NCBI GenBank assembly: GCA_038244085.1
Contig: JBBRTX010000006.1
Span: 20,891 to 84,890, forward strand
Length of the DNA stretch: 64,000 bases
Direction of reading: 5' to 3'
Source: Bacteroidales bacterium
GTDB lineage: Bacteria; Bacteroidota; Bacteroidia; Bacteroidales; FEN-979
Part shown: positions 1 through 48,671 of the stretch, one piece after another
How the letters are laid out: every line of letters begins with the position of its first letter
How positions within the stretch are numbered: position 1 is the stretch's first letter
Program-made: the position numbers and the translations under genes
The notes under the pieces: model-generated
Seen by the model: only the letters and a program-made list of their open reading frames with translations
Told to the model about the DNA's origin: nothing
Database searches by the model: none

Positions 1-1557
1 TCTCCTTACCTCGGGAACCGTGCACTTGAAGGTTGCAGTGATGTTGCTGTTTCCTTTCAGCTCGAAGCACCCGCCACAACTCCTTATACGGTCAATTATA
101 CCATAAGCGGAACCGCCGTCAACGGTGTGGATTATACCCAGATTTCCAATTCAGTCACATTCCTGACCGGATCGGACAGTGTTGCGGTGGTGATACACCC
201 TGTTTTTGATACCATAGCTGAAGGTCCCAAAACCGTTATTCTGAAACTGGACAAGGTTTCATGCGACGGAGGTGTTGTGGCTGATACGGTCATCATCGAA
301 GATTACCTTCCCATGTCAATGCATCTCATGGCCGACACCACTATATGCCATGGAATCTCCCTGAAGTTCCTCCAGGTTGTTACCGGAGGTACAGGATCCT
401 TGTCCTATCATTGGAATATTTCCACGGTTACTGACAGTGTTCTGACAATTGTGCCTGATGTCGGACAACACTTTATTATCGGAACGGTGACGGATCTGTG
501 TCCGAATTCTGTTTCAGATACGACAATCGTATTGGTCCATCCGACTCCCATTGCCAATGCGGGTACCAATATTTCCATTCCAAACGGGACCAGTACCACG
601 CTTCATGGCATTGCTTCAGGAGGAATTGGGCCTTATGTTTACCAGTGGATCTCCAATCCGCCGGGATTTTTATCCAACGAGCAAAACCCGTCAACCGGAA
701 ATCTGCCGGTAACCAAAATATTTTTACTAACGGTGACGGATAGTCTGACCGGCTGTCAGAGCGAACCTTCGCAGGTAATCGTTGCGGTTATAGGTGGTCC
801 ATTATCTGCCAATCCTGCGGCTGATCCGGGTGTGGTCTGCGTGGGGGACCCCGTTCATCTTTATGCACTGGCCGGAGGAGGTTCCGGGCTATACACCTAT
901 TCATGGAGTTCCGTTCCTTCCGGATTCGCTTCCCAGGAACCCGATCCTGAGACAACCCCTCAACAAACAACCACCTTCCAGGTCATCGTCAATGACGGAT
1001 TTAACAACTTTCCGGGATCTGCAACGGTAACGGTAAATCCTCTTCCGGTAATCCATATGGGGCCGGTGGATTCAACGGTATGTATTTACGATTCCGTGGT
1101 CCTGGATGCAGGTAATCCCGGCTCTGCTTATGAATGGTCAAACGGAGCCACATCAAGAACCATCACCATCACTTCTGCCGGATTGAGTACCGAAGTTCAG
1201 ACTTACCAGGTCAGGGTTACTAACCAGAATCAATGCATGGATTCGGCCCTGATCAATGTCATCTTTTCTTTTAATGCTTGTGTTGGAATTCATGATCAGT
1301 CTGATTTTAAAGATTTTACTGTATTTCCGAATCCTACAAACGGCAGCTTTAAAATCTTCATAAGGCCACTGGAACCCAGGACAAATGTTGAAATTTATAA
1401 TATGACGGGAAGCAATGTCTTCAGTACGATTATCGAGGGTATTCCCGGAATAACCATCGAAAAGGAAATCAATATTTCAAACTTTTCAGCTGGAATTTAC
1501 CTGATAAAGATCTACGGAAAAGGGTACTCAGGAACGGCAAAAATTCTGCGGCAATAA
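1..1557 (+). CDS. T9SS-secreted repeat-domain surface protein (5' end lies outside the window)
   Basis: Frame 1 is open from base 1 (SPYLGNRALEGC...TVNYTISGTAVNGVDY, a Calx-beta-like motif), so the ORF-track GTG at 127 is internal. Three Ig/PKD-like repeats carry GG.G.Y.Y.W. The C-terminus (FTVFPNPTNGSFKI...GIYLIKIYG...KILRQ) fits the T9SS C-terminal sorting domain pattern. Confidence 0.7.
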   Translation, partial: SPYLGNRALEGCSDVAVSFQLEAPATTPYTVNYTISGTAVNGVDYTQISNSVTFLTGSDSVAVVIHPVFDTIAEGPKTVILKLDKVSCDGGVVADTVIIEDYLPMSMHLMADTTICHGISLKFLQVVTGGTGSLSYHWNISTVTDSVLTIVPDVGQHFIIGTVTDLCPNSVSDTTIVLVHPTPIANAGTNISIPNGTSTTLHGIASGGIGPYVYQWISNPPGFLSNEQNPSTGNLPVTKIFLLTVTDSLTGCQSEPSQVIVAVIGGPLSANPAADPGVVCVGDPVHLYALAGGGSGLYTYSWSSVPSGFASQEPDPETTPQQTTTFQVIVNDGFNNFPGSATVTVNPLPVIHMGPVDSTVCIYDSVVLDAGNPGSAYEWSNGATSRTITITSAGLSTEVQTYQVRVTNQNQCMDSALINVIFSFNACVGIHDQSDFKDFTVFPNPTNGSFKIFIRPLEPRTNVEIYNMTGSNVFSTIIEGIPGITIEKEINISNFSAGIYLIKIYGKGYSGTAKILRQ

Positions 1558-1561
1558 CCAA

Positions 1562-1601
1562 CTCACCAACTCATCAGCTCATCAACTCATCAGCTATCCA
1601 A
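1562..1601. repeat. Tandem octamer array, left copy (CTCACCAA CTCATCAG CTCATCAA CTCATCAG CTATCCAA)
   Basis: Read directly from the sequence. It starts 4 nt after the stop of the upstream plus-strand gene. CTA at 1594-1596 is the TAG stop of the LexA-like gene on the minus strand. Confidence 0.85.
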
Positions 1602-2400
1602 GCTCGAGCCTTGTCTGGATTGCTTTCACCTCCTCGCGCAGTTTCTGTACTGTTTGAGCAAGCTGTGAAGGATCAACCTGGTCATTCGAAGGAAGATCAG
1701 CACTGATGTAATGCACGAACTGCCAGATTTCACGGATGTCTTTCACCTGAATGTCGTACGGACGATAGGTGGGGTTCAGCGAATGCAATATCAGCTTTGA
1801 ATCATCCCTGATCTTGTTTTCGGCCACTTTAAAAACAATTCCTTCATCGATGGTGAGAATGATATAGGCGTCTTTGTCTCTGACCGTTGACCAATCCTGT
1901 ACAAATACACCCGTCACCCAGGAACCATCAGGAATCGGCAGCATGGAATCACCGGTGATCTGAAAAGTCCGGTATTTTTTCTGTTTCGAGAGAAACGGAA
2001 GCCGGAAAGTAGGAAGGATACTGATGTACTCGGGATCTGCAAACCCACTCGTATATCCTGCCTTTGCCTTATGAGCGACGAGTTCAATGTTCTCCTCATT
2101 ATCTTTTCCGATGGTGGTGGTCAGAATCCGCAGATTACTTCCCCTGATGAATACATCAAATCCTTTTTCCAGTTGACGCAACTGACTTTCAGGGAGTTTT
2201 GAAAGATCGACTTTCAGCAAGGTATCGATCGCGATGTTGAAATAGTTGGAAAAACCAACCAGCGATTCCATGCCAGGCTGTGCGATTGAGTTTTCATAGC
2301 CACTCAGGGTTGAACGTTTCATCTTCAGCATAAAGGCCACATCATCCTGCGTCCGGCCCAGTCGTTTCCTCAGGATTTTAATGTTCGAGTTAAAAAACAT
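1594..2400 (-). CDS. LexA-like repressor: N-terminal XRE-type HTH plus C-terminal S24 self-cleaving peptidase domain
   Basis: The N-terminus (IKILRKRLGRTQDDVAFMLKMKRSTLSGYENS) is a classic XRE HTH. GDSM (ITGDSMLP) supplies the S24 catalytic Ser motif, with a downstream Lys candidate (FKVAENK). An Ala-Gly candidate cleavage site lies in HKAKAGY. The gene is divergent from a dinB/dnaE2 pair. Confidence 0.8.
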   Translation of the reverse strand: MFFNSNIKILRKRLGRTQDDVAFMLKMKRSTLSGYENSIAQPGMESLVGFSNYFNIAIDTLLKVDLSKLPESQLRQLEKGFDVFIRGSNLRILTTTIGKDNEENIELVAHKAKAGYTSGFADPEYISILPTFRLPFLSKQKKYRTFQITGDSMLPIPDGSWVTGVFVQDWSTVRDKDAYIILTIDEGIVFKVAENKIRDDSKLILHSLNPTYRPYDIQVKDIREIWQFVHYISADLPSNDQVDPSQLAQTVQKLREEVKAIQTRLELG

Positions 2401-2414
2401 TTGCGGTATTTTTT

Positions 2415-2448
2415 AAAAATGATTATATTGTGATCGAAAAAATGATTA
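2415..2448. promoter_or_regulatory. Candidate operator: direct 11-mer repeat AAAAATGATTA (2415-2425 and 2438-2448), 23-nt period
   Basis: Exact 11-nt direct repeat in the divergent lexA-like/dinB intergenic region. It lies just downstream of the minus-strand -7 box. The inverted half TAATCA recurs at 2521-2526, next to the dinB ATG. Confidence 0.35.
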
Positions 2449-2457
2449 AAAACACGT

Positions 2458-2465
2458 CAAAGATA
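2458..2465 (-). promoter_or_regulatory. Bacteroidota -7 promoter box (TATCTTTG) for the lexA-like gene
   Basis: Matches TAnnTTTG on the minus strand, 58 nt upstream of the ATG at 2400. Confidence 0.5.
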
Positions 2466-2533
2466 AGCCAATTATTTAAAAAGTGAAATGGAAAGATCGT
2501 TTTTTTTTATGTATCCATTCTTAATCACCTGAT

Positions 2534-3688
2534 ATGCTTCGATCGCGGGATATTCTGCATTTGGACTTGGACACTTTTTTTGTTTCAGTTGAGCGGTTGC
2601 AGAATGCTTCCCTGGTTGGTAAGCCTGTGATCATTGGCGGGATGTCCGACAGGGGAGTGGTGGCCAGTTGCAGTTACGAGGCGCGCCGTTTCGGTGTCAG
2701 TTCCGGCATGGCGATGAAGATGGCGCGGATGATGTGCCGTGATGCTGTTTTTATCCGCGGCGACATGGAGACCTACTCCAGGTATTCCCATCTGGTCACC
2801 GAGGTCATCGAGGAAAGAGCCCCGCTGTATGAAAAGGCTTCCATCGATGAGCATTACCTGGATGTAACGGGGATGGATCGTTTTTTTGGTTTACAGAAAT
2901 GGACACACGAGCTCCGGCAGGCCATCATAAAAAATACCGGGCTGCCGATCTCTTTTGGTTTATCTGTGAACAAGACTGTTTCAAAGATCGCAACCGGCGA
3001 AGCAAAACCCAACGGGGAGCTGCAGGTTCCCCAGGAGAGGGTTCAGCCGTTCCTGGCTCCTTTATCGATCCGGAAAATCCCCGGGATCGGCGAAAAAACC
3101 TACCCGTTGCTCCGTTCCATGGGCGTATCAACGATTGAGACCCTTAGCCGTATACCGGTTGACATGATGGAGCGGGTAATGGGGAAAAACGGGGTGGTGC
3201 TCTGGGAAAGGGCCAATGGCATTGATACCACACCGGTACGGCCCTATTCCGAAAGCAAATCCGTTAGCACCGAAACTACGTTCGATCAGGACACCATTGA
3301 TGTTGTCAGAATGAAAGAAATACTCGTAAAGATGGTTGAAAAGCTATCGTTTGAGCTGCGGGAACAGGAAAAACTGACAGCCTCTGTGACCGTTAAGATC
3401 CGCTATTCCAACTTCGATACCCATACCATTCAACAGCAGGTTCCCTATACCGCCTTCGATCATGTGCTGATCCCGCTGGTGAAGGACCTGTTTGATAAAG
3501 TCTTCCAGCGGCGGATGTTGATCCGGCTGATTGGCGTGCGTTTCAGTAAGCTTGTTTCCGGAAATCCGCAACTGAACATGTTCGAGGAAAGCACCGAAAT
3601 GATCAATCTTTACCAGGCAATGGATAAGATCAGGTCAAAATACGGGGCTTCTGCCATCCGACGGGCAGTGGCGTTGAAGTGTTGTTGA
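2534..3688 (+). CDS. dinB: Y-family DNA polymerase IV (DinB-like, catalytic carboxylates retained)
   Basis: HLDLDTFFVSVE and SIDEHYLDVTG correspond to the DMDxFFA and SxDEAYLD motifs of DinB, including the Asp/Asp/Glu metal ligands. At 384 aa the length is typical. Confidence 0.85.
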   Translation: MLRSRDILHLDLDTFFVSVERLQNASLVGKPVIIGGMSDRGVVASCSYEARRFGVSSGMAMKMARMMCRDAVFIRGDMETYSRYSHLVTEVIEERAPLYEKASIDEHYLDVTGMDRFFGLQKWTHELRQAIIKNTGLPISFGLSVNKTVSKIATGEAKPNGELQVPQERVQPFLAPLSIRKIPGIGEKTYPLLRSMGVSTIETLSRIPVDMMERVMGKNGVVLWERANGIDTTPVRPYSESKSVSTETTFDQDTIDVVRMKEILVKMVEKLSFELREQEKLTASVTVKIRYSNFDTHTIQQQVPYTAFDHVLIPLVKDLFDKVFQRRMLIRLIGVRFSKLVSGNPQLNMFEESTEMINLYQAMDKIRSKYGASAIRRAVALKCC

Positions 3689-3772
3689 TTTAAGAAAAAA
3701 CAAGGTGAAAAGACAAAAGTTGACTTCAGGATCGGATTCGTTTTCTAATGTTCTATTTCAGGGAATGGTAAA

Positions 3773-6733
3773 ATGTTCCTGAACGGTCATTCATATTATA
3801 GCCTTAGATATGGAACGCTTTCCATTGAGAAGCTCGTGGAGACGGCGAAAGTCAATGATGTGCATACACTAGCCCTGACGGACATCAACAACTCTGCGGG
3901 GATCCTGGATTTTGTGAAGGAATGTACCTTGAACGGGATCAAACCCGTTGCCGGGATCGAATTCCGTTCAAACGATCAATTGCTCTATATTGGGATTGCC
4001 AGGAATAACGAGGGCTTCCGCGAACTGAATGAATTTCTCACTGCCCATAACCTTCAGAAGATCCCGTTACCTCGCGAGGCCCCGGAATTTGAGAATGCCA
4101 CAGTCATCTATCCTTTTACCGACCAGGCTTTCACGAGAAGAAAAAAGCGTTTTCAGGACATGACGGATGTGGTGGGAATCCGTCCTTCGGAGATCAGGCG
4201 GCTGACCACGCATCCCGATCGTGAGTTCCTGCTGCGGAATTCGGTAATCCTTGCCCCGGTTACTTTTCAGACCGAAGCAGAATATTTTCTCCATAAAAAC
4301 CTCAGGGCCATTGATCATAATATCCTGATCAGTCATCTGAAACCTGAACAGATTGCCGGACAGGATGAAATGATGATCCCGGAAGGTGATCTGAAAATGA
4401 TATTTAAGGACTATCCTCAACTGATTCTCAATACAGAGAAGTTTTTGGATGATTGCCACATATCTTTTGACCGTTCATCTACAAAAAATAAAAAGACCTT
4501 CACCGGAACGCCCTATGATGACAAGGAGTTATTGGAAAAATTGGCCTTCGACGGGCTGGATTACCGATATGGAAAAAAAAACAAACAGGCCGTTGCACGC
4601 GTCCGGCATGAGTTGGAGATCATTGATAAAATGGGTTTTTCGTCCTATTTCCTGATTGCCTGGGACATTGTCAGATATTCCATGTCAAGAGGATTTTATC
4701 ATGTGGGAAGGGGCAGTGGCGCCAACAGCATTGTGGCTTATTGCCTGAAAATTACCGATGTGGATCCCATTGAACTCGATCTTTATTTCGAACGATTCAT
4801 CAATCCCAAGCGGACGTCTCCTCCCGATTTCGATATCGATTATTCGTGGAAAGAGCGGGATGAAGTGCTGGACTACATATTTAAGCGGCATGGCCATCAG
4901 CATACTGCGCTGCTGGGGGCTATGTCGACCTTCAAATCCAATTCAATTTACCGGGAACTCGGAAAGGTGCACGGATTACCCAAACTGGAGATGGATCAGT
5001 TTCTGCGTCATCCCGAAGAGAAGACGTATGAGAATGATAATATCATCAACAAAATCAGGACAATCGGCGCCATGATGGTTGATTTTCCGAATCTCAGGAG
5101 CATTCATGCCGGCGGAATTCTGATCTCCGATAAACCCATCACCTGTTATACCGCTCTGGATCTGCCTCCCAAAGGTTTTCCCACGACCCAGTGGGACATG
5201 TATGTTGCGGAAGACATAGGGTTTGAAAAACTGGATATCCTTTCGCAACGGGGCATCGGGCATATCAAGGAGGCGGCTGAGATCATTCTCGGAAACCGTA
5301 AGGTGAAAGTGGATGTACACCAGGTACAACTTTTCAAGAAGGATGAAACGGTGAAAGAACTGTTACGATCGGGGGACACCATCGGTTGTTTTTATGTGGA
5401 AAGTCCTGCCATGCGGCAACTGTTAAAGAAACTGCATTGCGACAATTACCTCTCACTGGTTGCAGCAAGTTCCATCATTCGGCCGGGTGTGGCAAGATCA
5501 GGAATGATGCGCGAATACATTTACCGTTTCCATCACCCCCACGGTTTCAGCTATATCCATCCGGTAATGGAAGAACAACTGAAGGAGACCTATGGTGTGA
5601 TGGTTTACCAGGAAGATGTGCTGAAGATCTGCCATCATTTTGCAGGACTGGACCTGTCGGATGCCGATGTGCTCCGTCGCGCCATGAGCGGAAAATTCAG
5701 ATCGAAGAAGGAGTTCCAGCGGATCGTTGACAAATTTTTTGAAAACTGCCGGAATTCCGGCTACCCGGAGGAGGTCACCAAAGAAGTCTGGCGACAGATC
5801 GAATCTTTTGCCGGCTATTCATTTTCAAAAGCACATTCAGCTTCCTATGCCGTGGAGAGCTACCAGAGTCTTTACCTGAAATCCCATTTCCCGCTTGAAT
5901 TTATGGTTGCCGTCATTAATAACTTCGGCGGTTTTTATTCTTCCTGGGTCTATTTCAATGAAGCCAGAAACTGGGGGGCTGCGTTGCATGAGCCTTGCGT
6001 GAACCGCGGAAATTACAAGACCAGCATCACGGGGAAAGACATTTTTGTCGGTTTCATCCATGTGGCGAACCTGGAGAGGGATACGGGGAAAATGATTCAG
6101 GAGGAACGAATGACAAATGGCCTCTATCTTGATCTCGGGGATTTTATCACCCGTACACAGATCAGTCTTGAACAGCTCATCATCCTGATCCGCACCGGTG
6201 CATTCAGGTTTACCGGCAAATCAAAATCGCAGCTTCTCTGGGAAGCCCATGTGCTGACGGGCGGCAAACCGGACTCAACAGAAACGGGAACGCTTTTCGT
6301 TACACCTGTCAAAAACTACGAGCTTCCACAGCTTGAACAAAACCGGATTGAAGATGTTTATGATGAAATCGAATTCCTGGGTTTTGCAGTAAAATATTCC
6401 TTTTTCGATCTTCTGGAGACTTCTTTTCGCGGAGAATGTCTTGCAAAGGAGATGCTGAATTACACCGGGACGAAAATGCGGATGCTCGGGCACCTGGTTA
6501 CAATCAAATATGCCCGAACCATCAAACATGAATGGATGAACTTCGGGACTTTTCTGGATGTTACAGGGCAGATCTTCGATACGGTTCATTTTCCGTACAG
6601 TCTGAAAACCTACCCTTTCCGCGGCGACGGAATCTATCTTCTTATGGGTAAAATCACTGAAGAGTTCGGCTATCCCATCATGACCGTGGAAAAGATGGCA
6701 AAAATGCCCGTGGTCAAAGATCCCCGGCAGTAA
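3773..6733 (+). CDS. dnaE2: Error-prone DNA polymerase III alpha-subunit paralogue (DnaE2/ImuC-like)
   Basis: N-terminal PHP domain (GHSYYSLRYG...LALTDINN) and a pol III alpha core (FERFINPKRTSPPDFDIDY, SFAGYSFSKAHSASYA). At 986 aa it is shorter than a replicative DnaE. It lies directly downstream of dinB and next to the LexA-like gene. Confidence 0.75.
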   Translation: MFLNGHSYYSLRYGTLSIEKLVETAKVNDVHTLALTDINNSAGILDFVKECTLNGIKPVAGIEFRSNDQLLYIGIARNNEGFRELNEFLTAHNLQKIPLPREAPEFENATVIYPFTDQAFTRRKKRFQDMTDVVGIRPSEIRRLTTHPDREFLLRNSVILAPVTFQTEAEYFLHKNLRAIDHNILISHLKPEQIAGQDEMMIPEGDLKMIFKDYPQLILNTEKFLDDCHISFDRSSTKNKKTFTGTPYDDKELLEKLAFDGLDYRYGKKNKQAVARVRHELEIIDKMGFSSYFLIAWDIVRYSMSRGFYHVGRGSGANSIVAYCLKITDVDPIELDLYFERFINPKRTSPPDFDIDYSWKERDEVLDYIFKRHGHQHTALLGAMSTFKSNSIYRELGKVHGLPKLEMDQFLRHPEEKTYENDNIINKIRTIGAMMVDFPNLRSIHAGGILISDKPITCYTALDLPPKGFPTTQWDMYVAEDIGFEKLDILSQRGIGHIKEAAEIILGNRKVKVDVHQVQLFKKDETVKELLRSGDTIGCFYVESPAMRQLLKKLHCDNYLSLVAASSIIRPGVARSGMMREYIYRFHHPHGFSYIHPVMEEQLKETYGVMVYQEDVLKICHHFAGLDLSDADVLRRAMSGKFRSKKEFQRIVDKFFENCRNSGYPEEVTKEVWRQIESFAGYSFSKAHSASYAVESYQSLYLKSHFPLEFMVAVINNFGGFYSSWVYFNEARNWGAALHEPCVNRGNYKTSITGKDIFVGFIHVANLERDTGKMIQEERMTNGLYLDLGDFITRTQISLEQLIILIRTGAFRFTGKSKSQLLWEAHVLTGGKPDSTETGTLFVTPVKNYELPQLEQNRIEDVYDEIEFLGFAVKYSFFDLLETSFRGECLAKEMLNYTGTKMRMLGHLVTIKYARTIKHEWMNFGTFLDVTGQIFDTVHFPYSLKTYPFRGDGIYLLMGKITEEFGYPIMTVEKMAKMPVVKDPRQ

Positions 6734-6757
6734 TTACTTAGCTGCTGAAACATAGAG

Positions 6758-6797
6758 CTCACCACCTCATCAACTCATCAGCTCATCAACTACTTCA
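6758..6797. repeat. Tandem octamer array, right copy (CTCACCAC CTCATCAA CTCATCAG CTCATCAA CTACTTCA)
   Basis: Read directly. It matches the left copy at 31 of 35 in-register positions. CTA at 6790-6792 is the TAG stop of the minus-strand peptidase gene. Confidence 0.85.
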
Positions 6798-8445
6798 GTC
6801 CCAAAGCAGCTGGTCCCTGCAAATAGAGGATGTCCACGGGAATACTGGCTGTTCTAAGTTTGTCAATATCGGATTGAAGTGTTTGGCGGATCTTTCCGTT
6901 TGTTTCAAGATAAGCGGAAGCTCCCGGGTAATCTCCTTCGCCTTCAAATACCAACACCTTGTTTGCCCATTCATTCATAGCAATACGCATCTTGTCCATA
7001 TTGACTTTGTAAGTCCCTTCCGCACTTCTTTCAAAAGCGCCCTTGTCTTCAAAATAATTGAAACACATCATATTGGCTTTTCCATGGGAATCGGCAGCAC
7101 CAAAGCGGACAGAGCGGATGATCCCGGCCATAAAGGTCACAAAACAATCTTCCTGGGAAATGTCCTTGAGTTCGCCTTTTTCGATCAACTTCGAAACCAT
7201 GAAAAGACCCAGGATGTCAGCTTTTGCCTCTTCAAAAGAGGAATATTTTTCTTTCAACGCATCGCGCACGGTCCCTTTCCCATTGATGGTATTCTTGATA
7301 CCCAGTCCATGCGCCACTTCATGGAACATTACATTTGAAAAGAAGGCATCGAAAGTGATATTCTTCTTTTGAGAAGGATCGGTGAGCACATTGGAAATGG
7401 GAACCAGGATGCTCTCGAATTTTGCCTTCATGGCATTCTTTAACTGTAACCTTCTCGAGCCTTTTGCCAGTTGAACCTTCTCATCATTCGGGAGGTTGAT
7501 GGCAATGGTTTTTCCGCCTGCATTGGAATGACCTGTGACATAAATGATGTCGTAGGCATTCAGGTCGGATCCTGAAGCAGGCACCTCTTTTTTATATTTT
7601 GCATCGACCGGCAACTGTCGCTGAAGTTCAGGCAGCACACCGGTAAATTTTTCCAGTTTTTTGCTCCAGTCTTTATCCTTCACAAGAATGGCCGATTCGT
7701 ATGCAGTTTTATAACCAAAAAGTTCGTCTTCATAATTCTCAATTGGGCCTATCACAATGTCCAGTGTGTTGGTCTTCATATCCATCCAGGCCATGTCGCT
7801 GGCAAAATAGTCATCCGAAACCAGGGCATTGGCTCTCAGGGAAAGATATTTTTTCAGACCGGGATCCTCTGCCAGTTCGCTTGCTTTCTGAAGCAATTCA
7901 GCAGCCCTTCCGAGTTTTTGTTTAAATGCTTCGTGAAACCAGATTAGTTTGAGGCTCTTGTCATTATTTCTGCCAACCAGGGTATACTGACTGGTTTTAT
8001 CCTTTTCTTTCCATGCTTCAAATTCTTCTTTCGTCATATCCTGCGGATAAAAATTGGCTCCGGCAGGCTTTTCTCCGAAACTTTTCATGAAAGGCTTGTT
8101 CCCATTGAGTCTTTCCCAGGGTCCGTAATTGATTGATACAAAACGGCGAATCAGCGTATCCCCGATGGTATCCAGGAAGGCCGCTTTGGGACCAATTACC
8201 TGTTCCCAGTATAAATCGTCCATGATATCAGCGGCTTCCATTAGCAGCGGAATCATTTCCTTCTCTTTATCTGTAAGTTTTGAAAGATTGGTTGTGAGTT
8301 TCACTACTGCAAACTCGTTGATTTTTGCATTGATCACCGAATCCTGCCCGGTAAGGTTGCCGGTTTTTCCATTGGAACTGCATCCTGTAAGTAAGGTTCC
8401 GGTCATAAATGCGATCGCTAAAATAATCAGATTGAATTTTGACAT
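6790..8445 (-). CDS. Zn-metallopeptidase lipoprotein, DPP III (M49)-like
   Basis: HEVAHGLG plus a downstream EEAKAD resemble the HExxGH / EExxAE(D) pair of family M49. The start is placed at MSKFNLIILAIAFMTGTLLTGCSS (lipoprotein signal), because the -7 box at 8467-8474 lies inside the longer ORF-track version. Confidence 0.5.
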   Translation of the reverse strand: MSKFNLIILAIAFMTGTLLTGCSSNGKTGNLTGQDSVINAKINEFAVVKLTTNLSKLTDKEKEMIPLLMEAADIMDDLYWEQVIGPKAAFLDTIGDTLIRRFVSINYGPWERLNGNKPFMKSFGEKPAGANFYPQDMTKEEFEAWKEKDKTSQYTLVGRNNDKSLKLIWFHEAFKQKLGRAAELLQKASELAEDPGLKKYLSLRANALVSDDYFASDMAWMDMKTNTLDIVIGPIENYEDELFGYKTAYESAILVKDKDWSKKLEKFTGVLPELQRQLPVDAKYKKEVPASGSDLNAYDIIYVTGHSNAGGKTIAINLPNDEKVQLAKGSRRLQLKNAMKAKFESILVPISNVLTDPSQKKNITFDAFFSNVMFHEVAHGLGIKNTINGKGTVRDALKEKYSSFEEAKADILGLFMVSKLIEKGELKDISQEDCFVTFMAGIIRSVRFGAADSHGKANMMCFNYFEDKGAFERSAEGTYKVNMDKMRIAMNEWANKVLVFEGEGDYPGASAYLETNGKIRQTLQSDIDKLRTASIPVDILYLQGPAALGLK

Positions 8446-14105: not shown

Positions 14106-16553
14106 TCAGATCCTGATATGAATCCCGACAAGGTAATTAACCAGAGCCTGAGGAAAATAACCGTTCATTTCTTTTGCGGCTCCACCCAGATAGTAACGGT
14201 AAACCCAGGCATTGGTCTCATATTTATTACTGAAAATATTATTGGCTTGCAGCGTGAACCCTATCTCATCGGCCCATGAGGTCCGGAAAGAAAAGGATGC
14301 CACTATGTTTTGGGTGAACCAGGCCTTCAGAATCCGTTCCTCGTTCGATGTGTTGTCTGTAAACTGTTTGCCGACATATCTTGACTGAAGGGTTAAATTC
14401 AATCCCTTGATTGGGATAAATGTAAACTCATTCATGGCAATCAGGGAAGGGGAGAATGACAGGTCAGTTTCACCCAGGTTTTTGCTGACCTGCCCGAGAA
14501 AGTTCCAGTCAGCATCATAATTGTCAACAAATTCTGTAAAATTGTTGATTTTATTGCGGCTGAAGGTCGCGTTGGCATTCCAGGTTAACCATTTTACAGG
14601 ATTTGCCCCGAGGCTGATTTCTATTCCGGCCCGGTAGCTTTCCGGAACGTTTGTCATGATAGCAGCACCGGTATTGTTAATCTCACCGGTTAGCACGAGT
14701 TGATCACGATAGTTCATGTAATAAAGGTTGACAGCACCCCTGAAATGGGAAAATGAAAGATCATACCCCAATTCATAATCATACAGCGTTTCACGGGTGG
14801 GCATATGTTGTGCATCGGCATCCTTGTAGTTGTCCCGGTTAGGTTCACGGTTGGCGATACCGAAGGAGAAATAGGCCTTTTGTTTTTCGTTGATATCTGC
14901 ATAGATCCCGGCCTTCGGATTAAAGAAGTTAAACTGATGGGTTTGATCCAGGATCGAAAGATCATCTTCCGTTCCTTTCATTTTATGATCTACATATCGG
15001 TACTGCATATCTCCGAAAAGATTTATTTTACCGAGCAGACGATAGGTCACCTTGGTGAAAACCGTAAAATCTTTTTTCTCGCCGGTGCTGTAATACCAGT
15101 TTCGGTCGTTGTTACCGTTCGAAGCAAATTCAGCCCAGATGATTTTACCGGAATGCCTTCCAAGATAATGGCTGTATGAGCCTCCAACCGTGATCTTCCA
15201 CTTGTCGCCGGAGTAATAATTTCCCGAAAATGTGACACCGGAAAAATCATTGTCGAGAATTTTCCTGTTGATCAAATCGGTAGAGGTGAGGGTATCACTT
15301 CCGGTTACCACGTTTTCCAGCCCATAAGCCGCAAAGGATTCTCCCTGTTTATAATTTTCATAATAACCATGACCATGGGTGTAGAAAAGGGCCGCATTGA
15401 GGTTGAGGTTTTTTGTGATCGTCTGCGAGAAGATCAGCTGGTAATGATCCTGGTTATAATTATCCGTCTGGTTGTTGTAGTATGCGATTTTCCCGTTTTT
15501 GTCGATGTATTCCCCGGAAGGATTATACGTACGGTTGGTGGTCAGCGAATCTTTTGGAACCCCCAACCATGCCTGGTAGGTTTTCTCATATCCCGATAAA
15601 ATATTGACCTTGACGGTGGTATTCTTTCCGAAATATCCTCCCGAAAGATAATAGGAACTTAACTTTGCTGAAGCGCGGTCGATATAACCCTCGGAGGTGA
15701 CAAAGGAAGCCCTGCCATCGAAAGAGAATCGGTTTTTGATCATGCCGGTTCCAAACCGGAAGGTGTTTTTGAAAGTGCTGAAAGATCCGACAGAACTATT
15801 GACTTCGCCATAAGGATCCTGGTTCAGAGCCTGGGTCTGTATGTTGACAGATGCGCCAAATGCACCGGAGCCGTTGGTGGAAGTCCCCACACCGCGCTGA
15901 ACCTGGATGTTCCCTGTCGAAGAGGCAATATCCGGCAGATCGACGAACCAGACACCCTGCGACTCTGCGTCATTCACCGGGATCCCGTTCATCGTTACAT
16001 TAATCCGGGTCAGGTCAGAACCGCGAATGCTGATCCCGGTATAGCCAATGCCGGTTCCGGCATCTGAAGTAACCAATACCGAGGGGGTGGATTGAAGAAT
16101 ATATGGCATATCTTTCCCAAGATTGAGCTCTTCAATTTTCTTTGCAGAAATATTTGTAAAGGTTGCTGGTGTGCGCGGCTGAGCCCTGGTTGCAATGATA
16201 TTGACCTCTTCTCCAAGAATGGCGGCATTTTCAAGCGCCACATCCACAATCGTATCTTTTGATAAACGGATTGTAGTGAGATAACGCTGGTATCCCATAA
16301 AACTGACCCTGACCGTGTGGACCCCGGAAGGAATCGAACGGATATGATAAATCCCGGCCCCATCTGTAAAAGCAGATAAAAAGGTGTTCTCCAGGGTGAT
16401 GTTGGCGCCGGCAAGCGGACTGCCGGTAACAGCATCTTTTACGACACCCGATAGCGAAACCTGCGCAGTAGCTGGCAATACCAATATCATGAAAAATGCG
16501 ACAGTCAATGAAAGCACCTTCCAGCAGAAAGTTGAAAAATGTTTGTTTTGCAT
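14106..16553 (-). CDS. TonB-dependent outer-membrane receptor (predicted thiamine/TPP-precursor uptake)
   Basis: N-terminal carboxypeptidase-regulatory-like domain (SGVVKDAVTGSPLAGANITLE), a plug domain, and a C-terminal beta-barrel ending with an aromatic-rich terminal strand. A TPP riboswitch sits directly upstream. The start is placed at the ATG (MQNKHF...) rather than the TTG at 16592. Confidence 0.8.
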   Translation of the reverse strand: MQNKHFSTFCWKVLSLTVAFFMILVLPATAQVSLSGVVKDAVTGSPLAGANITLENTFLSAFTDGAGIYHIRSIPSGVHTVRVSFMGYQRYLTTIRLSKDTIVDVALENAAILGEEVNIIATRAQPRTPATFTNISAKKIEELNLGKDMPYILQSTPSVLVTSDAGTGIGYTGISIRGSDLTRINVTMNGIPVNDAESQGVWFVDLPDIASSTGNIQVQRGVGTSTNGSGAFGASVNIQTQALNQDPYGEVNSSVGSFSTFKNTFRFGTGMIKNRFSFDGRASFVTSEGYIDRASAKLSSYYLSGGYFGKNTTVKVNILSGYEKTYQAWLGVPKDSLTTNRTYNPSGEYIDKNGKIAYYNNQTDNYNQDHYQLIFSQTITKNLNLNAALFYTHGHGYYENYKQGESFAAYGLENVVTGSDTLTSTDLINRKILDNDFSGVTFSGNYYSGDKWKITVGGSYSHYLGRHSGKIIWAEFASNGNNDRNWYYSTGEKKDFTVFTKVTYRLLGKINLFGDMQYRYVDHKMKGTEDDLSILDQTHQFNFFNPKAGIYADINEKQKAYFSFGIANREPNRDNYKDADAQHMPTRETLYDYELGYDLSFSHFRGAVNLYYMNYRDQLVLTGEINNTGAAIMTNVPESYRAGIEISLGANPVKWLTWNANATFSRNKINNFTEFVDNYDADWNFLGQVSKNLGETDLSFSPSLIAMNEFTFIPIKGLNLTLQSRYVGKQFTDNTSNEERILKAWFTQNIVASFSFRTSWADEIGFTLQANNIFSNKYETNAWVYRYYLGGAAKEMNGYFPQALVNYLVGIHIRI

Positions 16554-16614
16554 TGCGACTGATTTTAAAGGTTTATAAAGCTTTACAATCAATCAATAGA
16601 GGGAATTCTGAAGA

Positions 16615-16705
16615 GTAACGGTTGGTTCCTCCCTACGCCGGCATTACCCGGATCAGGTATTAAGAGTATAATCTCAGCCTTTAAATGGCACCCCTATTGG
16701 ATAGA
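16615..16705 (-). promoter_or_regulatory. TPP (THI-box) riboswitch
   Basis: The minus strand reads AAUAGGGGUGCCAUUUAAAGGCUGAGAUUAUACUCUUAAUACCUGAUCCGGGUAAUGCCGGCGUAGGGAGGAACC. This contains the GGGGUGC, CUGAGA, ACCUGAUC.GG.UAAUGCC.GCG.AGGGA signature of the TPP aptamer. Confidence 0.85.
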
Positions 16706-20780: not shown

Positions 20781-20866
20781 TGGAGAGATGGCAGAGTGGT
20801 CGATTGCGGCGGTCTTGAAAACCGTTGAGGTGCAAGCCTCCGGGGGTTCGAATCCCTCTCTCTCCG
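20781..20866 (+). tRNA. tRNA-Ser (anticodon UGA)
   Basis: Acceptor GGAGAGA/TCTCTCC, anticodon stem GCGGT/ACCGT with loop CT-TGA-AA, a long variable arm, and a GGTTCGAATCC T-loop. Confidence 0.9.
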
Positions 20867-20901
20867 CATATTGACCTCACACGCAAACACACATTTGCCT
20901 C

Positions 20902-20988
20902 GGAGAGATGCCAGAGCGGTCGAATGGGGCGGTCTCGAAAACCGTTGATCCCTTACGGGGTCCGGGGGTTCGAATCCCCCTCTCTCCG
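20902..20988 (+). tRNA. tRNA-Ser (anticodon CGA)
   Basis: Same acceptor and T-arm as the first tRNA, anticodon loop CT-CGA-AA, and a long variable arm. Confidence 0.9.
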
Positions 20989-21033
20989 CACAATACTGCC
21001 TGAACCCTTCTTTTAGCTTAAATCCCGGAAAAT

Positions 21034-28356: not shown

Positions 28357-28385
28357 TAAGGTTAAAAACCTTGAAGCATTAATGA

Positions 28386-29978
28386 TTAGTTAATAACCAC
28401 TTTCTTTACAATAGATCCATCGGTCATAACCACTTTTACATTGTACAGGCCTGACTGTATGCTGGAAGTGTTAATGGTGAGTGAATTATTGTTGACTTTC
28501 TGGCTGAATACGATCTGGCCAAGGAGGTTATAAACCTGAACTTCTTTAATGGTGTTGTTTGCGTTAACATAAACAACATCTGTTGCAGGGTTCGGGCCAA
28601 CGGTAACCGTTGCCTTGGTAATTTCATTGATTCCAATTCCACCAACCTTGATATAACCGGTCTTGGTTAAGGTAGTATTCGGAGTGAAAGTATTCGAAAC
28701 GGTCAGAGAAACATTATAAAGTCCGCCAGCAGTGTATTGAATAGCAGGAGGTGTTTGTAATGTTGATGTGGCAGGAGTTCCACCCTGGAATGACCAGAGG
28801 TAAGTAGCAGCGCCTGTTGAAAGATTTGTAAATGTTGCTGTTCCGCCAAAGAGGATAGCTGTATCTGCTGTTTCGAAAGCAGGAACTGCCTGAACCAGGT
28901 TGTCGATGAATTTAAACATGCCACCAGTGGTTGCATCTGTGCTGAATGCACCGACCCATCCGGTCTGAGGATTAATCCATGATTCTGCAAGGAACTGGAT
29001 TCCATTGGTGTTCGGCATTTCAGCCCATGTATGTCCGCCATTGAAGGAATAAACAACGCCAGCAAGGCCATTGGTTGCATCAGCACCGGAAGCCACATAA
29101 GTGTTGGGTGATGTGGGTACATATTCAAGATCATTGGTATAAACAGTACCTACGGCTGTAACAGCAGTCCAGGTTGCACCACCATCAGATGATTCGGCAA
29201 GACCACCGGTTGTTGATGCACCTCTGTCCTGGGCTAAGCCATGCATGCCATCTTTGAAAGCGGGGGTGCAATAGATTGCACTCCATCCCGGAATAGCTGC
29301 GGCGGTCCAGTTGAGTCCCTTATCTACGCTCTTGTATATTCTTCCTTTGTTGGTTCCAAACCAGCTGGTATCACCAATCGAAGAGGTATAACCTACAACG
29401 CCGAATTCACCTGATACAGGGTTGGCAATCTGGGAACCAGGAACCAGGGTCCATGCAGCACCACCATTGTTGGTTGTATAAATTTCAAAGTCTCCGTTGA
29501 TGGGATCGCCCATACACCATCCATCATTTGCATTATAAAAATGAACGCAATTTGGGAAAGATGATGCATTGGCAAAAGTTGCGGTCGTTTGACGAGCCCA
29601 TGTAGTCCCTCCGTTGGAGGTTTTATAGATACCCATACCGGTTGTGGCACTTGCAGGCGGGAAAGCAACAATCCATGCAGTCTGATCATCAATTGCACTT
29701 ACCATGGCAAGTGCTAATGCGGAGATACCGGGAATGGTACCAGCTGTCCAAAGGGTTCCGCCATTGACAGTGCGGGTGAAATCTGTACAAGCACCAGCTG
29801 CATTTAAGCCATCATAAGCAACAGCCCAAACAACCGTTGAACTGACTGCATCCATATGACGGATACCTCTTGATGCGGCTGCGAATCCACTGGCCTGCTC
29901 AACAAATACATCTACCTGGGCAAATGTAACAATTGTTAATGCCAACATGGCGATTACGGAAAGTAATGTTCTTTTCAT
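28386..29978 (-). CDS. T9SS-secreted BNR/Ycf48-like beta-propeller plus PKD-domain protein
   Basis: Signal peptide and GG.TW blades (GGTLWTAG, GGTTWARQ, GGAAWTLV, GGATWTAV, GGHTWAEM). A PKD-like segment follows (FTNLSTGAATYLWSFQGG...YNVSLTVSN). The T9SS C-terminal domain is VGPNPATDVVYV...VYNLLGQIVFS...GLYNVKVV. Confidence 0.7.
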   Translation of the reverse strand: MKRTLLSVIAMLALTIVTFAQVDVFVEQASGFAAASRGIRHMDAVSSTVVWAVAYDGLNAAGACTDFTRTVNGGTLWTAGTIPGISALALAMVSAIDDQTAWIVAFPPASATTGMGIYKTSNGGTTWARQTTATFANASSFPNCVHFYNANDGWCMGDPINGDFEIYTTNNGGAAWTLVPGSQIANPVSGEFGVVGYTSSIGDTSWFGTNKGRIYKSVDKGLNWTAAAIPGWSAIYCTPAFKDGMHGLAQDRGASTTGGLAESSDGGATWTAVTAVGTVYTNDLEYVPTSPNTYVASGADATNGLAGVVYSFNGGHTWAEMPNTNGIQFLAESWINPQTGWVGAFSTDATTGGMFKFIDNLVQAVPAFETADTAILFGGTATFTNLSTGAATYLWSFQGGTPATSTLQTPPAIQYTAGGLYNVSLTVSNTFTPNTTLTKTGYIKVGGIGINEITKATVTVGPNPATDVVYVNANNTIKEVQVYNLLGQIVFSQKVNNNSLTINTSSIQSGLYNVKVVMTDGSIVKKVVIN

Positions 29979-47409: not shown

Positions 47410-47419
47410 CGTCCGAAGT

Positions 47420-47447
47420 GTTTACAAGTGTAATTACAATTGTAAAC
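47420..47447. repeat. 28-bp palindrome, copy 1 (GTTTACAAGTGTAATTACAATTGTAAAC)
   Basis: Read directly. It is a near-perfect inverted repeat centred on TGTAATTACA, 10 nt after the S8 peptidase stop. Confidence 0.85.
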
Positions 47448-47892
47448 AAAGTATAACACACGCTTCTACTCCATAGTATTGCTTGTTTTTACGATAGAAT
47501 TATCTACCGAACATTACTAATTCGTCGTATTTAATCAGCCTCACTTACCGCAAAAAGGTAATATCTTTCTGAACGGAACGATGCGTCTCCTCGCCTTAGC
47601 AGTGAAATTTAAACTATACTGGCACGATAGTGATTGATCAAATAAAAGAATGAGAGCAAGGATTATACGGATGGCCGCGGCTAAAATTAATAAACGTAAA
47701 TCAGCAACATCCGGGTTCATCAGTCTTCTAAAAAATCAGCATAAATTAGTAACATCCGCTTCATCAGCGTTCACTTTCTCCTTCATAAGAGGGGTGGAGG
47801 AGTTTGGGTTAATTCCCTGTAGCTTGCTATGAAGTGAAAGGATAAATTCCACTTTAATACCTTAAAGCCGCGAGGTATTTCATTACCAATTT

Positions 47893-47920
47893 GTTTACAT
47901 ATGTAATTACATTTGTAAAC
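47893..47920. repeat. 28-bp palindrome, copy 2 (GTTTACATATGTAATTACATTTGTAAAC)
   Basis: 25 of 28 positions are identical to copy 1. It contains a plus-strand TACATTTG -7-box match (47908-47915). Confidence 0.85.
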
Positions 47921-48137
47921 AATAATAAAACGGACTTCACCACAAATTTAGACAGATTATCAGTTATTAGCGACGATTAGCATCGTTGGCCCTAAGCCTT
48001 ATCACGGTAATCTGGTAAATTACTAATGATTATTGTGTTTACATTTGGAAAAACGACAATATTATTTGTCATATAGTATTAACAATCAGGAACTAAATAA
48101 TGTTTATTTAATTTATTACTTTATGTTAAAACAAAAT

Positions 48138-48155
48138 TTACAGTTATAACTGTAA
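48138..48155. repeat. Perfect 18-bp palindrome TTACAGTTATAACTGTAA
   Basis: Read directly. It has the same TTACA/TGTAA arms as the 28-bp palindromes and lies 26 nt upstream of the -7 box of the XRE gene. Confidence 0.8.
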
Positions 48156-48180
48156 TTGTCAAAAGATTGAAGGATTTTGT

Positions 48181-48188
48181 TACTTTTG
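48181..48188 (+). promoter_or_regulatory. -7 promoter box (TACTTTTG) for the XRE regulator, embedded in a TTAC-N4-GTAA palindrome
   Basis: TAnnTTTG, 19 nt upstream of the ATG at 48207. GTTACTTTTGTAAT (48179-48192) is an inverted repeat that overlaps it. Confidence 0.5.
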
Positions 48189-48206
48189 TAATGAAAATTA
48201 AGAATC

Positions 48207-48671
48207 ATGATTGAGCGGATTTTAGAAATTATCAGACAAAAGAATTTGACTCCTTCGCAATTTGCGGAAGAGATCGGGATCCAACGTTCCAGTATTTCTC
48301 ACCTCGTATCAGGGAGAAATAAACCAAGTCTTGAATTTATACAGAAGATACTGATACAATTTCCGGATATCAGTTCCGAGTGGTTATTATCCGGAACAGG
48401 AAGTATGATGAAGGCGCAAATGGATGGAGAGAATGCAACGGATACCCTTCCGCCGGCAGTGACGAAGACTGAAAAGAACCCGTCAGCGGATGAGTACAGT
48501 CTCTTATTTGATGCGGATCAAATCAATGAACCGGAAGTGCAACCCAAAACAGATTCCTCCCGCCAGATAAAAAAGAAGAACATGCCAGCCCCGGAAATAA
48601 GGCAGATTGAAAAGATCGTTTATTTTTATAAGGACATGACTTTCAGAGAGTACTATCCTGATAATGCCTAA
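48207..48671 (+). CDS. XRE-family helix-turn-helix transcriptional regulator
   Basis: LTPSQFAEEIGIQRSSISHLVSGRNKPSLEFIQKI is a clear HTH_3-type motif. The C-terminal half is low-complexity and unrecognised. Confidence 0.75.
   Translation: MIERILEIIRQKNLTPSQFAEEIGIQRSSISHLVSGRNKPSLEFIQKILIQFPDISSEWLLSGTGSMMKAQMDGENATDTLPPAVTKTEKNPSADEYSLLFDADQINEPEVQPKTDSSRQIKKKNMPAPEIRQIEKIVYFYKDMTFREYYPDNA

Follow-up and report, generated by a model that had tools for sequence, protein, structure and literature searches.

A three-gene locus found at positions 1594-6733 of a 64,000-nt stretch of Bacteroidales DNA (assembly GCA_038244085.1, contig JBBRTX010000006.1; hereafter the window, i.e. the whole stretch, to which all coordinates refer) most probably forms an SOS-type translesion module of the Bacteroidota, with a non-canonical LexA repressor governing an operon of two polymerases, PolY2 and DnaE2B. 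We assign this reading a probability of about 0.8. Its domains, key residues, family membership, conserved gene order and conserved operators were observed at the locus, and its genes are the following:

1594-2400, minus strand: repressor gene (rep), 268 aa, built of an HTH_3 domain, a linker region, an S24 peptidase and, at the C-terminus, an amphipathic helix
2534-3688, plus strand: dinB, Y-family polymerase of the 'Bacteroid-PolY2' group, 384 aa with Pfam domains IMS, IMS_HHH and IMS_C
3773-6733, plus strand: dnaE2, polymerase of the DnaE2B group, 986 aa with Pfam domains PHP, DNA_pol3_alpha, finger and HHH_6

The three open reading frames (ORFs) had been proposed by an earlier reading of the letters made without database searches (the sequence-only reading), and their helix-turn-helix (HTH)/S24, DinB and Pol III alpha domains were confirmed by Pfam profile search. 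As also proposed, the dinB-dnaE2 pair is transcribed divergently from the repressor gene, with a control region of 133 bp (2401-2533) in between. This divergent order was conserved in nearly all loci with enough flank among 80 related genome loci (about 840 kb, of which 20 kb are rep-dinB spacers; individual loci bear L-numbers below), which came nearly all from metagenome-assembled genomes (MAGs) labelled Bacteroidales, Bacteroidota/Bacteroidetes, Prolixibacteraceae, Draconibacterium or Lentimicrobiaceae. Gene dnaE2 directly followed dinB in many of these loci and lay 0.4-4.5 kb downstream in others. The two genes overlapped or abutted in many relatives; their spacer in the window measured 84 nt and contained neither a terminator nor an operator. 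A wider scan of positions 1400-7000 for sigma-70 promoters and intrinsic terminators yielded nothing above chance. The absence of ImuA from the cassette was upheld: no RecA/SulA-like ImuA ORF occurred in the ORF list of the cassette, and tblastn queries with Agrobacterium ImuA, ImuB, RecA and E. coli LexA gave no match in the 64-kb window. Genes filling the rep/dinB/dnaE2 gaps of relatives were also considered as ImuA candidates and rejected, none being RecA-like. On the other hand, the composition of the cassette had been called unusual, which did not hold, as it is a standard Bacteroidota arrangement that is already published (PMC6511836, PMC8565304, PMC12926913).

Non-canonical LexA proteins of Bacteroidetes were described by Sanchez-Osuna et al. 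(NAR 2021, PMC8565304), who validated two representatives and one diverged paralogue by electrophoretic mobility shift assay (EMSA) and by quantitative reverse-transcription PCR (RT-qPCR) with mitomycin C. The repressor of the window is assigned to this family by its sequence, because it combines HTH_3, S24 and terminal helix with homology to the EMSA- and RT-qPCR-validated regulator of Pontibacter actiniarum. With the latter (WP_025606010.1) it shared 46% identity over the C-terminal 163 aa (E=1e-52), a similarity extending through the terminal helix. Its HTH is of the multi-helical PF01381 type, not a winged helix, and its S24 domain (Peptidase_S24, aa 111-219) was recognised by Pfam with E=8.6e-8. 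The following features were located in the gene:

2221-2382, minus strand: HTH_3 domain, aa 7-60 (Pfam E=7.8e-11)
2056-2061, minus strand: A114-G115 codons, predicted self-cleavage bond (KAGY), aligned with the Ala-Gly of LexA and lambda CI
1945-1947, minus strand: S152 codon, predicted nucleophile (GDSM), aligned with LexA, CI and UmuD
1828-1830, minus strand: K191 codon, predicted general base (VFKV), aligned with LexA, CI and UmuD
1603-1683, minus strand: C-terminal heptad-repeat helix, about aa 240-266, aligned with the terminal helix of the published family

For this comparison, the alignment of LexA, lambda CI and UmuD and the family sequences were taken from Supplementary Data S5 of PMC8565304 and re-aligned with the repressor. 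The sequence-only reading had pictured an XRE-type HTH joined to an S24 domain with a GDSM serine and an AG cleavage site, and had made its call depend on a Ser/Lys dyad. Both domains were indeed found, S152 and K191 matched the dyad of the three reference proteins, and A114, G115, S152 and K191 were invariant in 34 homologues displaying 71-85% identity. The coiled C-terminal extension of roughly 40 aa that it had noticed aligned with the published terminal helix, which by alignment is a hallmark of the non-canonical LexA family. In the last 30 residues (NDQVDPSQLAQTVQKLREEVKAIQTRLELG) hydrophobic positions were spaced 4-3-4-3-4, a leucine-zipper-like heptad pattern, and a weak match to the Pfam leucine zipper CLZ was recorded at the C-terminus (E=0.068).

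More than 6,300 homologues of the repressor were present in databases, some of them named 'LexA family transcriptional regulator [Bacteroidales]' by NCBI. Sequence search of the PDB returned Xre and CylR2-type HTH proteins as best matches; only the HTH was matched, and none of the hits covered the S24 domain. Weak NCBIfam matches pointed to phage RstR and antitoxins. An AlphaFold2 model built from the 34-sequence alignment (71-85% identity) reached a mean pLDDT (the per-residue confidence score of the program) of 52.8, with confidence confined to the HTH, and displayed a low-confidence helix at residues 244-264.

The product of dinB is by its residues catalytically intact and predicted to be an active Y-family polymerase. 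It scored 283.9 bits against the NCBIfam model PRK02406, above the cut-off of 256. Its D11 and D13 (HLDLD) together with D105 and E106 (SIDE) aligned with D8, D10, D103 and E104 of E. coli DinB, in agreement with the earlier remark that the catalytic carboxylates are kept, and the FF steric-gate pair was retained as well. Full-length identities of 54-56% were observed with PolY2 of D. halophilum, C. agri and S. spiritivorum, and of 66% with a dinB product encoded on a plasmid of Adhaeribacter swui (see below). Two motifs were distinguished downstream of the polymerase domains:

3569-3583, plus strand: QLNMF, aa 346-350, candidate beta-clamp-binding motif, appearing as Q(Q/L)(L/I)(N/D)(M/L)F in 65 homologues
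3599-3667, plus strand: RecA-NT-like tail motif, aa 356-378, MINLYQAMDKIRSKYGASAIRRA, compared with RecA by hhalign

The first is what we take to be the beta-clamp motif. The second was conserved as LYQAMDKIRSKYGxxxIRR across the 65 homologues and aligned weakly with the N-terminal helix and strand of RecA (residues 9-30 of the E. coli protein, E=0.019; residues 14-36 of the D. halophilum protein, E=0.0025). The sole Pfam match of this tail was DUF4113 (E=0.023, below the cut-off), the RecA-NT region of UmuC. A profile search of the tail against the PDB gave no RecA match. The protein ends right after the RecA-NT-like motif and carries no ImuB-C domain. An apparent DinB-DnaE2 fusion of 1391 aa in locus L059 was dismissed as an ORF-extension artefact, since a stop codon, one codon and then an ATG separate the two genes.

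From its sequence, the 986-aa protein is a DnaE2B-group polymerase whose polymerase centre is intact, whose PHP site is degenerate and which lacks the tau-binding domain, a set of features in line with a non-replicative role. The catalytic motifs PDFDIDY (D354, D356) and KLDIL (D488) were invariant in its homologues. The PHP metal ligands were replaced (LNGHS, RYG, TDINN), leaving a degenerate site, and the thumb displayed an 18-residue deletion relative to Taq DnaE, as described for Bacteroidetes DnaE2 (Timinskas 2013). The protein is shorter than E. coli DnaE1 (1160 aa), and its match to the DnaE1 model of NCBIfam (PRK05673) stopped at position 1060 of 1146, before the tau-binding domain. 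Scores were 530.6 bits for this model (cut-off 1002) and 462 bits for the error-prone DnaE2 model (cut-off 939), about half in each case. The DnaE2-type call of the sequence-only reading was strengthened by direct comparison: the N-terminal 400 aa were 47-51% identical to three published Bacteroidetes DnaE2B, versus 26% for Agrobacterium DnaE2A and 28% for E. coli DnaE1.

A 60% identical dnaE product was found on the 117-kb plasmid NZ_CP055155.1 of A. swui (L083), where positions 2985-7955 hold an SRAP-dinB-dnaE2B operon with a perfect CTAA-CAATA-TTAG box 38 nt upstream of dinB. The same 150-nt spacer of this cultured member of the Hymenobacteraceae contains two further boxes with one mismatch. 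DnaE2B homologues ranged from 980 to 1110 aa (L054, L061, L062, L064, L004, L013), a difference caused by low-complexity linker inserts that sit just before a conserved ..LF motif and are 7-nt tandem arrays at the DNA level. The counterpart of this linker in the window covers aa 820-842 (nt 6230-6298), and the motif reads TGTLF, possibly a weak clamp motif.

Operators were derived from a phylogenetic footprint over 70 loci, and the resulting position weight matrix (PWM) was scored against 20 shuffles. The rep-dinB spacers shared a conserved block, AATGATTATATTgTaaTCg-N-AAAaaTGATTAAAAA...C, which comprises two dyads of GATTA-N5-TAATC type with starts 23 bp apart. The control region of the window was annotated as follows:

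2421-2435, no strand assigned: predicted operator O1, GATTA-TATTG-TGATC (PWM 23.6)
2444-2458, no strand assigned: predicted operator O2, GATTA-AAAAC-ACGTC (PWM 22.7)
2458-2465, minus strand: TATCTTTG, exact match to TAnnTTTG and candidate -7 element of the repressor gene, abutting O2

Only O1 and O2 exceeded in the window the best score obtained among the shuffles (19.0). The next-best match (28382-28400, ATGATTAGTTAATAACCAC) scored 12.5, and further operators in the window were rejected, since no remaining score went beyond 12.5, inside the shuffled range. Dyads with one mismatch at 28384, 29993 and 53146 were likewise rejected, their frequency being that of chance. The clade consensus of O1 is GATTA-TATTG-TAATC. 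O2 retained in the window just the outer TC of its right arm, and many relatives displayed a perfect GATTA-AAAAA-TAATC. Over the 70 loci, left arms as well as the outermost G and C were nearly invariant, and inner right-arm bases varied.

Perfect GATTA-N5-TAATC sites were strongly concentrated in the expected place, 50 out of 63 in the 840 kb falling inside the 20 kb of rep-dinB spacers. The other 13 comprised about eight immediately upstream of a dnaE2 displaced from dinB, two where the rep-dinB spacer meets dinB, two preceding rep at the ends of contigs and one within coding sequence. A dnaE2 gene located outside the operon therefore appears to carry its own box. The element TAnnTTTG is the -7 promoter element of Bacteroidetes, and TATCTTTG is a probable promoter element of the repressor gene; the transcription start of that gene would then coincide with or slightly precede both operators. 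Taken together, the GATTA/TAATC boxes are predicted to be dyad-N5-dyad operators of the non-canonical LexA type, present in the promoters of the repressor itself and of the repair genes.

These elements suggest a simple switch. A repressor dimer bound to O1 and O2 in the 133-bp region would shut both its own gene and the dinB-dnaE2 promoter; the two sites lie between the -7 box and the start codon of the repressor gene and also upstream of dinB, so that one protein could repress both. Upon DNA damage, RecA filaments would stimulate cleavage of the A114-G115 bond by S152 and K191. Cleavage would separate the HTH from the dimerisation module, the HTH would lose its affinity for the operators and both promoters would be derepressed. 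PolY2 and DnaE2B would then be made and presumably cooperate with RecA and the beta clamp to bypass lesions, as in the PolY-DnaE2B-RecA mutasome. DNA binding, RecA-dependent cleavage, damage induction and complex formation are here extrapolated from tested relatives or published models. In this sense, the self-contained, damage-inducible translesion module proposed by the sequence-only reading was supported by the sequence tests, with induction and self-cleavage predicted by homology.

Two further characteristics of the locus are its base composition and its tandem arrays. The GC content of dinB was 51.1% versus 44.4% for the window, higher than in any of the 1155-bp windows taken at 200-bp steps, so that an excess over neighbouring genes first suspected from two lines of sequence turned out to be real. 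It was also family-wide: in all 54 related loci compared, dinB exceeded its surroundings in GC (mean +6.8 points), as did dnaE2 its locus in 28 of 28 (mean +3.7 points). This excess, which may stem from protein composition or codon usage, is thus a trait of the gene family and does not point to a recent transfer into this genome. Recent horizontal transfer was accordingly rejected as an explanation of the dinB composition, the flanking genes being moreover partly syntenic. The cassette is bordered by two arrays:

1559-1595, plus strand: 8-bp tandem array CTCATCAR, about 4.2 copies, in the stop-to-stop spacer beside the repressor gene
6758-6791, plus strand: second CTCATCAR array, about 4.2 copies, in the stop-to-stop spacer after dnaE2

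Both arrays have the same orientation and stand between convergent genes, one at each end of the cassette. They were the only two in 64 kb, with 0.29 matches expected by chance, and their plus-strand RNA would be rich in C and poor in G. Metagenome assemblies of the same strain from two runs (SRR19962014 and SRR19962012) were 100% identical here and revealed no copy-number variation of the arrays. Arrays of period 7 to 9 were present in 62 of the 80 related loci, with a unit differing between genomes, and occurred right after the stop codons of dinB, rep or dnaE2 or right before the dinB start. Examples are found in L010 (3766-3838 and 4278-4353), L016 (4702-4754 and 5899-5926) and L021 (4025-4088). 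Inverted pairs of arrays flanked small inserted genes (four-helix-bundle, ORF6N) in relatives. Comparable short intergenic tandem repeats are known from Beggiatoaceae, cyanobacteria and a few Bacteroidetes (PMC4679880).

Several observations weigh against the module as proposed. The published boxes CTAA-N5-TTAG and GGA-N5-TCC were both absent from the control region (2401-2533) and from the window, and the predicted binding specificity therefore derives from the footprint alone. No exact TAnnTTTG box was detected on the plus strand for dinB. The assignment of the RecA-NT motif is statistically weak (E between 0.0025 and 0.023), though convergent, and the poor AlphaFold2 model of the repressor (pLDDT 52.8) adds little. 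Moreover, the right operator arms were poorly conserved, which may reflect recognition of a direct repeat. Such an operator would consist of two ATGATTA half-sites 23 bp apart, bound for instance by a head-to-tail oligomer held by the C-terminal zipper, the right arms being incidental or promoter-related. Left arms reading ATGATTA were nearly invariant in both sites over the 70 loci, right arms varied between TAATC, TAGTC, TCGTC, ACGTC and TGATC, and the invariant O1 spacer suggests an overlapping promoter constraint. We nevertheless regard this alternative as unlikely. In both sites the outermost base was equally conserved in the right arm (C) and in the left arm (G), perfect 5+5 palindromes occurred in 24 of 70 O1 sites and in many O2 sites, and the stand-alone boxes before displaced dnaE2 genes were single perfect palindromes. 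Furthermore, validated family members bind dyad-N5-dyad sequences and mutation of either arm abolishes binding (PMC8565304). Nor does a missing main motif exclude membership of the family, because the same study documents diverged motifs in paralogues. Its Table S10 lists diverged dyad-N5-dyad candidates for paralogues without the main motif, including one for Draconibacterium sp. M1, and its RecA tree labels Draconibacterium and Prolixibacteraceae genomes as having two regulators of the non-canonical LexA cluster. A GATTA/TAATC box for the clade of the window was not among the Table S10 candidates.

The diverged operator, along with the link between paralogy and regulatory divergence reported in PMC8565304, could also mean that the S24 domain no longer responds to RecA, leaving a constitutive or otherwise-signalled local repressor and a cassette that is not damage-inducible. 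This is distinctly unlikely given that the four cleavage determinants were invariant among homologues of 71-85% identity; the diverged paralogue of Elizabethkingia anophelis, which also faces an error-prone polymerase gene, is induced by mitomycin C (PMC8565304). An immunity repressor of CI type belonging to a prophage or mobile element, with the polymerase genes as cargo, would account for the CI/Xre-like N-terminal domain, the weak matches to phage RstR and antitoxins, the identical 8-bp arrays bracketing the cassette, the plasmid-borne operon of A. swui and the GC-rich dinB. It is very unlikely: no integrase, phage or transfer genes were found in or beside the cassette, genes for a type IX secretion system (T9SS) protein, an M49 peptidase and a Band_7 protein flank it in common with several relatives, the rep/dinB pairing held in nearly all related loci, the GC excess was family-wide, and the published phylogeny sets non-canonical LexA apart from phage repressors (PMC8565304). 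A role of the 986-aa protein as replicative Pol III alpha (DnaE1) that merely adjoins dinB appears extremely improbable. Homologues are labelled 'DNA polymerase III subunit alpha' by NCBI, the DnaE1 model scored slightly above the DnaE2 model, and BLAST identity to E. coli DnaE1 was no lower than to DnaE2A. Yet both scores were about half of their cut-offs, the tau-binding C-terminal domain is missing, the PHP site is degenerate, and the published proteins with 47-51% identity are phylogenetically classed as DnaE2B and come from genomes also holding a DnaE1. In addition, the gene stands behind a LexA-type operator, has an operator of its own when displaced and has a 60% identical plasmid copy. 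None of these alternatives was favoured over the translesion module under non-canonical LexA control. As a speculation to which little credence is given, the cassette could be a unit delimited by recombination through the arrays or, in a milder version, the repressor could be a local paralogue with a new GATTA-N5-TAATC specificity, acting cooperatively at two tandem sites through its C-terminal zipper. Should the arrays mediate insertion or shuffling of gene cassettes, environmental Bacteroidales would possess a form of gene mobility not yet described, with the SOS module as one passenger.

In about 20 relatives, the module was interrupted by small, apparently selfish genes coding for four-helix-bundle proteins of 126-151 aa (23S rRNA intervening-sequence type), ORF6N-domain proteins, GxxExxY proteins or an IS200-like transposase. 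These four types made up the short gaps, and long gaps contained unrelated membrane or enzyme genes. The rep-dinB spacer was interrupted in L010, L012, L022, L040, L043, L047, L049, L062 and L063, and the dinB-dnaE2 spacer in L005, L006, L057, L062 and L064. Two MAG contigs of other labels, L001 ('Syntrophothermus sp.', JBLNAN010000367.1) and L028 ('Alphaproteobacteria bacterium', SACF01000012.1), carry the same Bacteroidales cassette. They are probably mis-binned; the control regions of L028 and of the Bacteroidales contig L024 were almost the same.

Elsewhere in the window, a thiamine pyrophosphate (TPP) riboswitch (16616-16705, minus strand, 62.7 bits) was detected upstream of a TonB-dependent receptor gene (14106-16592), and two adjacent tRNA-Ser genes (anticodons TGA and CGA) at 20782-20989 on the plus strand. 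About 800 bp at 47410-48206, upstream of a 154-aa HTH_3-like ORF (48207-48671), displayed neither a convincing ORF nor an Rfam match. This stretch contains twice a palindrome of about 28 bp, GTTTACAnnTGTAATTACAnnTGTAAAC, at 47420-47449 and 47893-47922.

Public names such as 'DNA polymerase III subunit alpha' and, often, 'XRE family regulator' hide here an error-prone polymerase pair and its SOS switch. Their recognition extends the non-canonical LexA family and the PolY-DnaE2B module to very many uncultured environmental genomes of Bacteroidales type, and the candidate two-site operator GATTA-N5-TAATC could allow prediction of the SOS regulon in these genomes. The locus opens no new question. 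Relative to the parts of PMC6511836, PMC8565304 and PMC12926913 that were available, the novelty is modest and would consist of the clade operator sequence and its two-site layout.

Among known systems, the closest on the regulatory side is the published non-canonical LexA, whose described features include the terminal helix and, as target of this CI-like LexA substitute, the dinB-COG0587 operon (PMC8565304). The repressor of the window shares with it the PF01381 HTH, the linker, the S24 domain with Ala-Gly, Ser and Lys, the terminal alpha-helix, predicted dyad-N5-dyad sites in its own promoter and the dinB-COG0587 operon as presumed target. Its gene diverges from that of an error-prone polymerase, as does the gene of the E. 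anophelis paralogue. Published operators are CTAA-N5-TTAG in the P. actiniarum cluster, GGA-N5-TCC, and TTAC-N5-GTAA in the E. anophelis paralogue (PMC8565304). The present system differs from these by its GATTA/TAATC half-sites and by two tandem sites with starts 23 bp apart. In contrast to the tested proteins, it originates from MAGs of uncultured environmental 'Bacteroidales' (Prolixibacteraceae, Draconibacterium and Lentimicrobiaceae type) and is known here from sequence alone.

On the polymerase side, the counterpart is a PolY2-group polymerase with a RecA-NT-like motif associated with DnaE2, in the absence of ImuA or ImuB-C, that was reported in Bacteroidetes by Timinskas & Venclovas (NAR 2019, PMC6511836). 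It was named PolY-DnaE2B-RecA in a 2026 survey that modelled it for C. algicola, D. halophilum, C. agri and S. spiritivorum and listed one DnaE1 and one DnaE2B in the D. halophilum genome (PMC12926913). Examples of the module are ADV50500/ADV50501 of Cellulophaga algicola and QIA08209/QIA08210 of Draconibacterium halophilum. Here too, the gene of a short DnaE2, reduced in PHP and thumb, directly follows that of an active-type PolY with a clamp motif and a possible RecA-NT-like tail, and both ImuA and ImuB-C are lacking; the two differ in sequence divergence only. The canonical (lexA)-imuA-imuB-dnaE2 cassette (Agrobacterium pTiKerr27, locus L084, as well as Mycobacterium, Caulobacter and Pseudomonas) likewise associates an SOS-type repressor, a Y-family protein and a second Pol III alpha. 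Unlike this cassette, the present one has no ImuA, its Y-family protein is catalytically intact and devoid of ImuB-C, its polymerase is DnaE2B and not DnaE2A (26% identity), and its HTH is of CI type and not winged. Finally, S24 repressors of the lambda CI/HdiR type share the multi-helical HTH, the S24 domain of self-cleaving type and tandem operators, predicted in the window, in a divergent region. The present repressor differs from them in being chromosomal, in its predicted control of repair polymerases and not of a lytic programme, in its extra terminal helix, and in belonging to a family that the published tree sets apart from phage repressors (PMC8565304).

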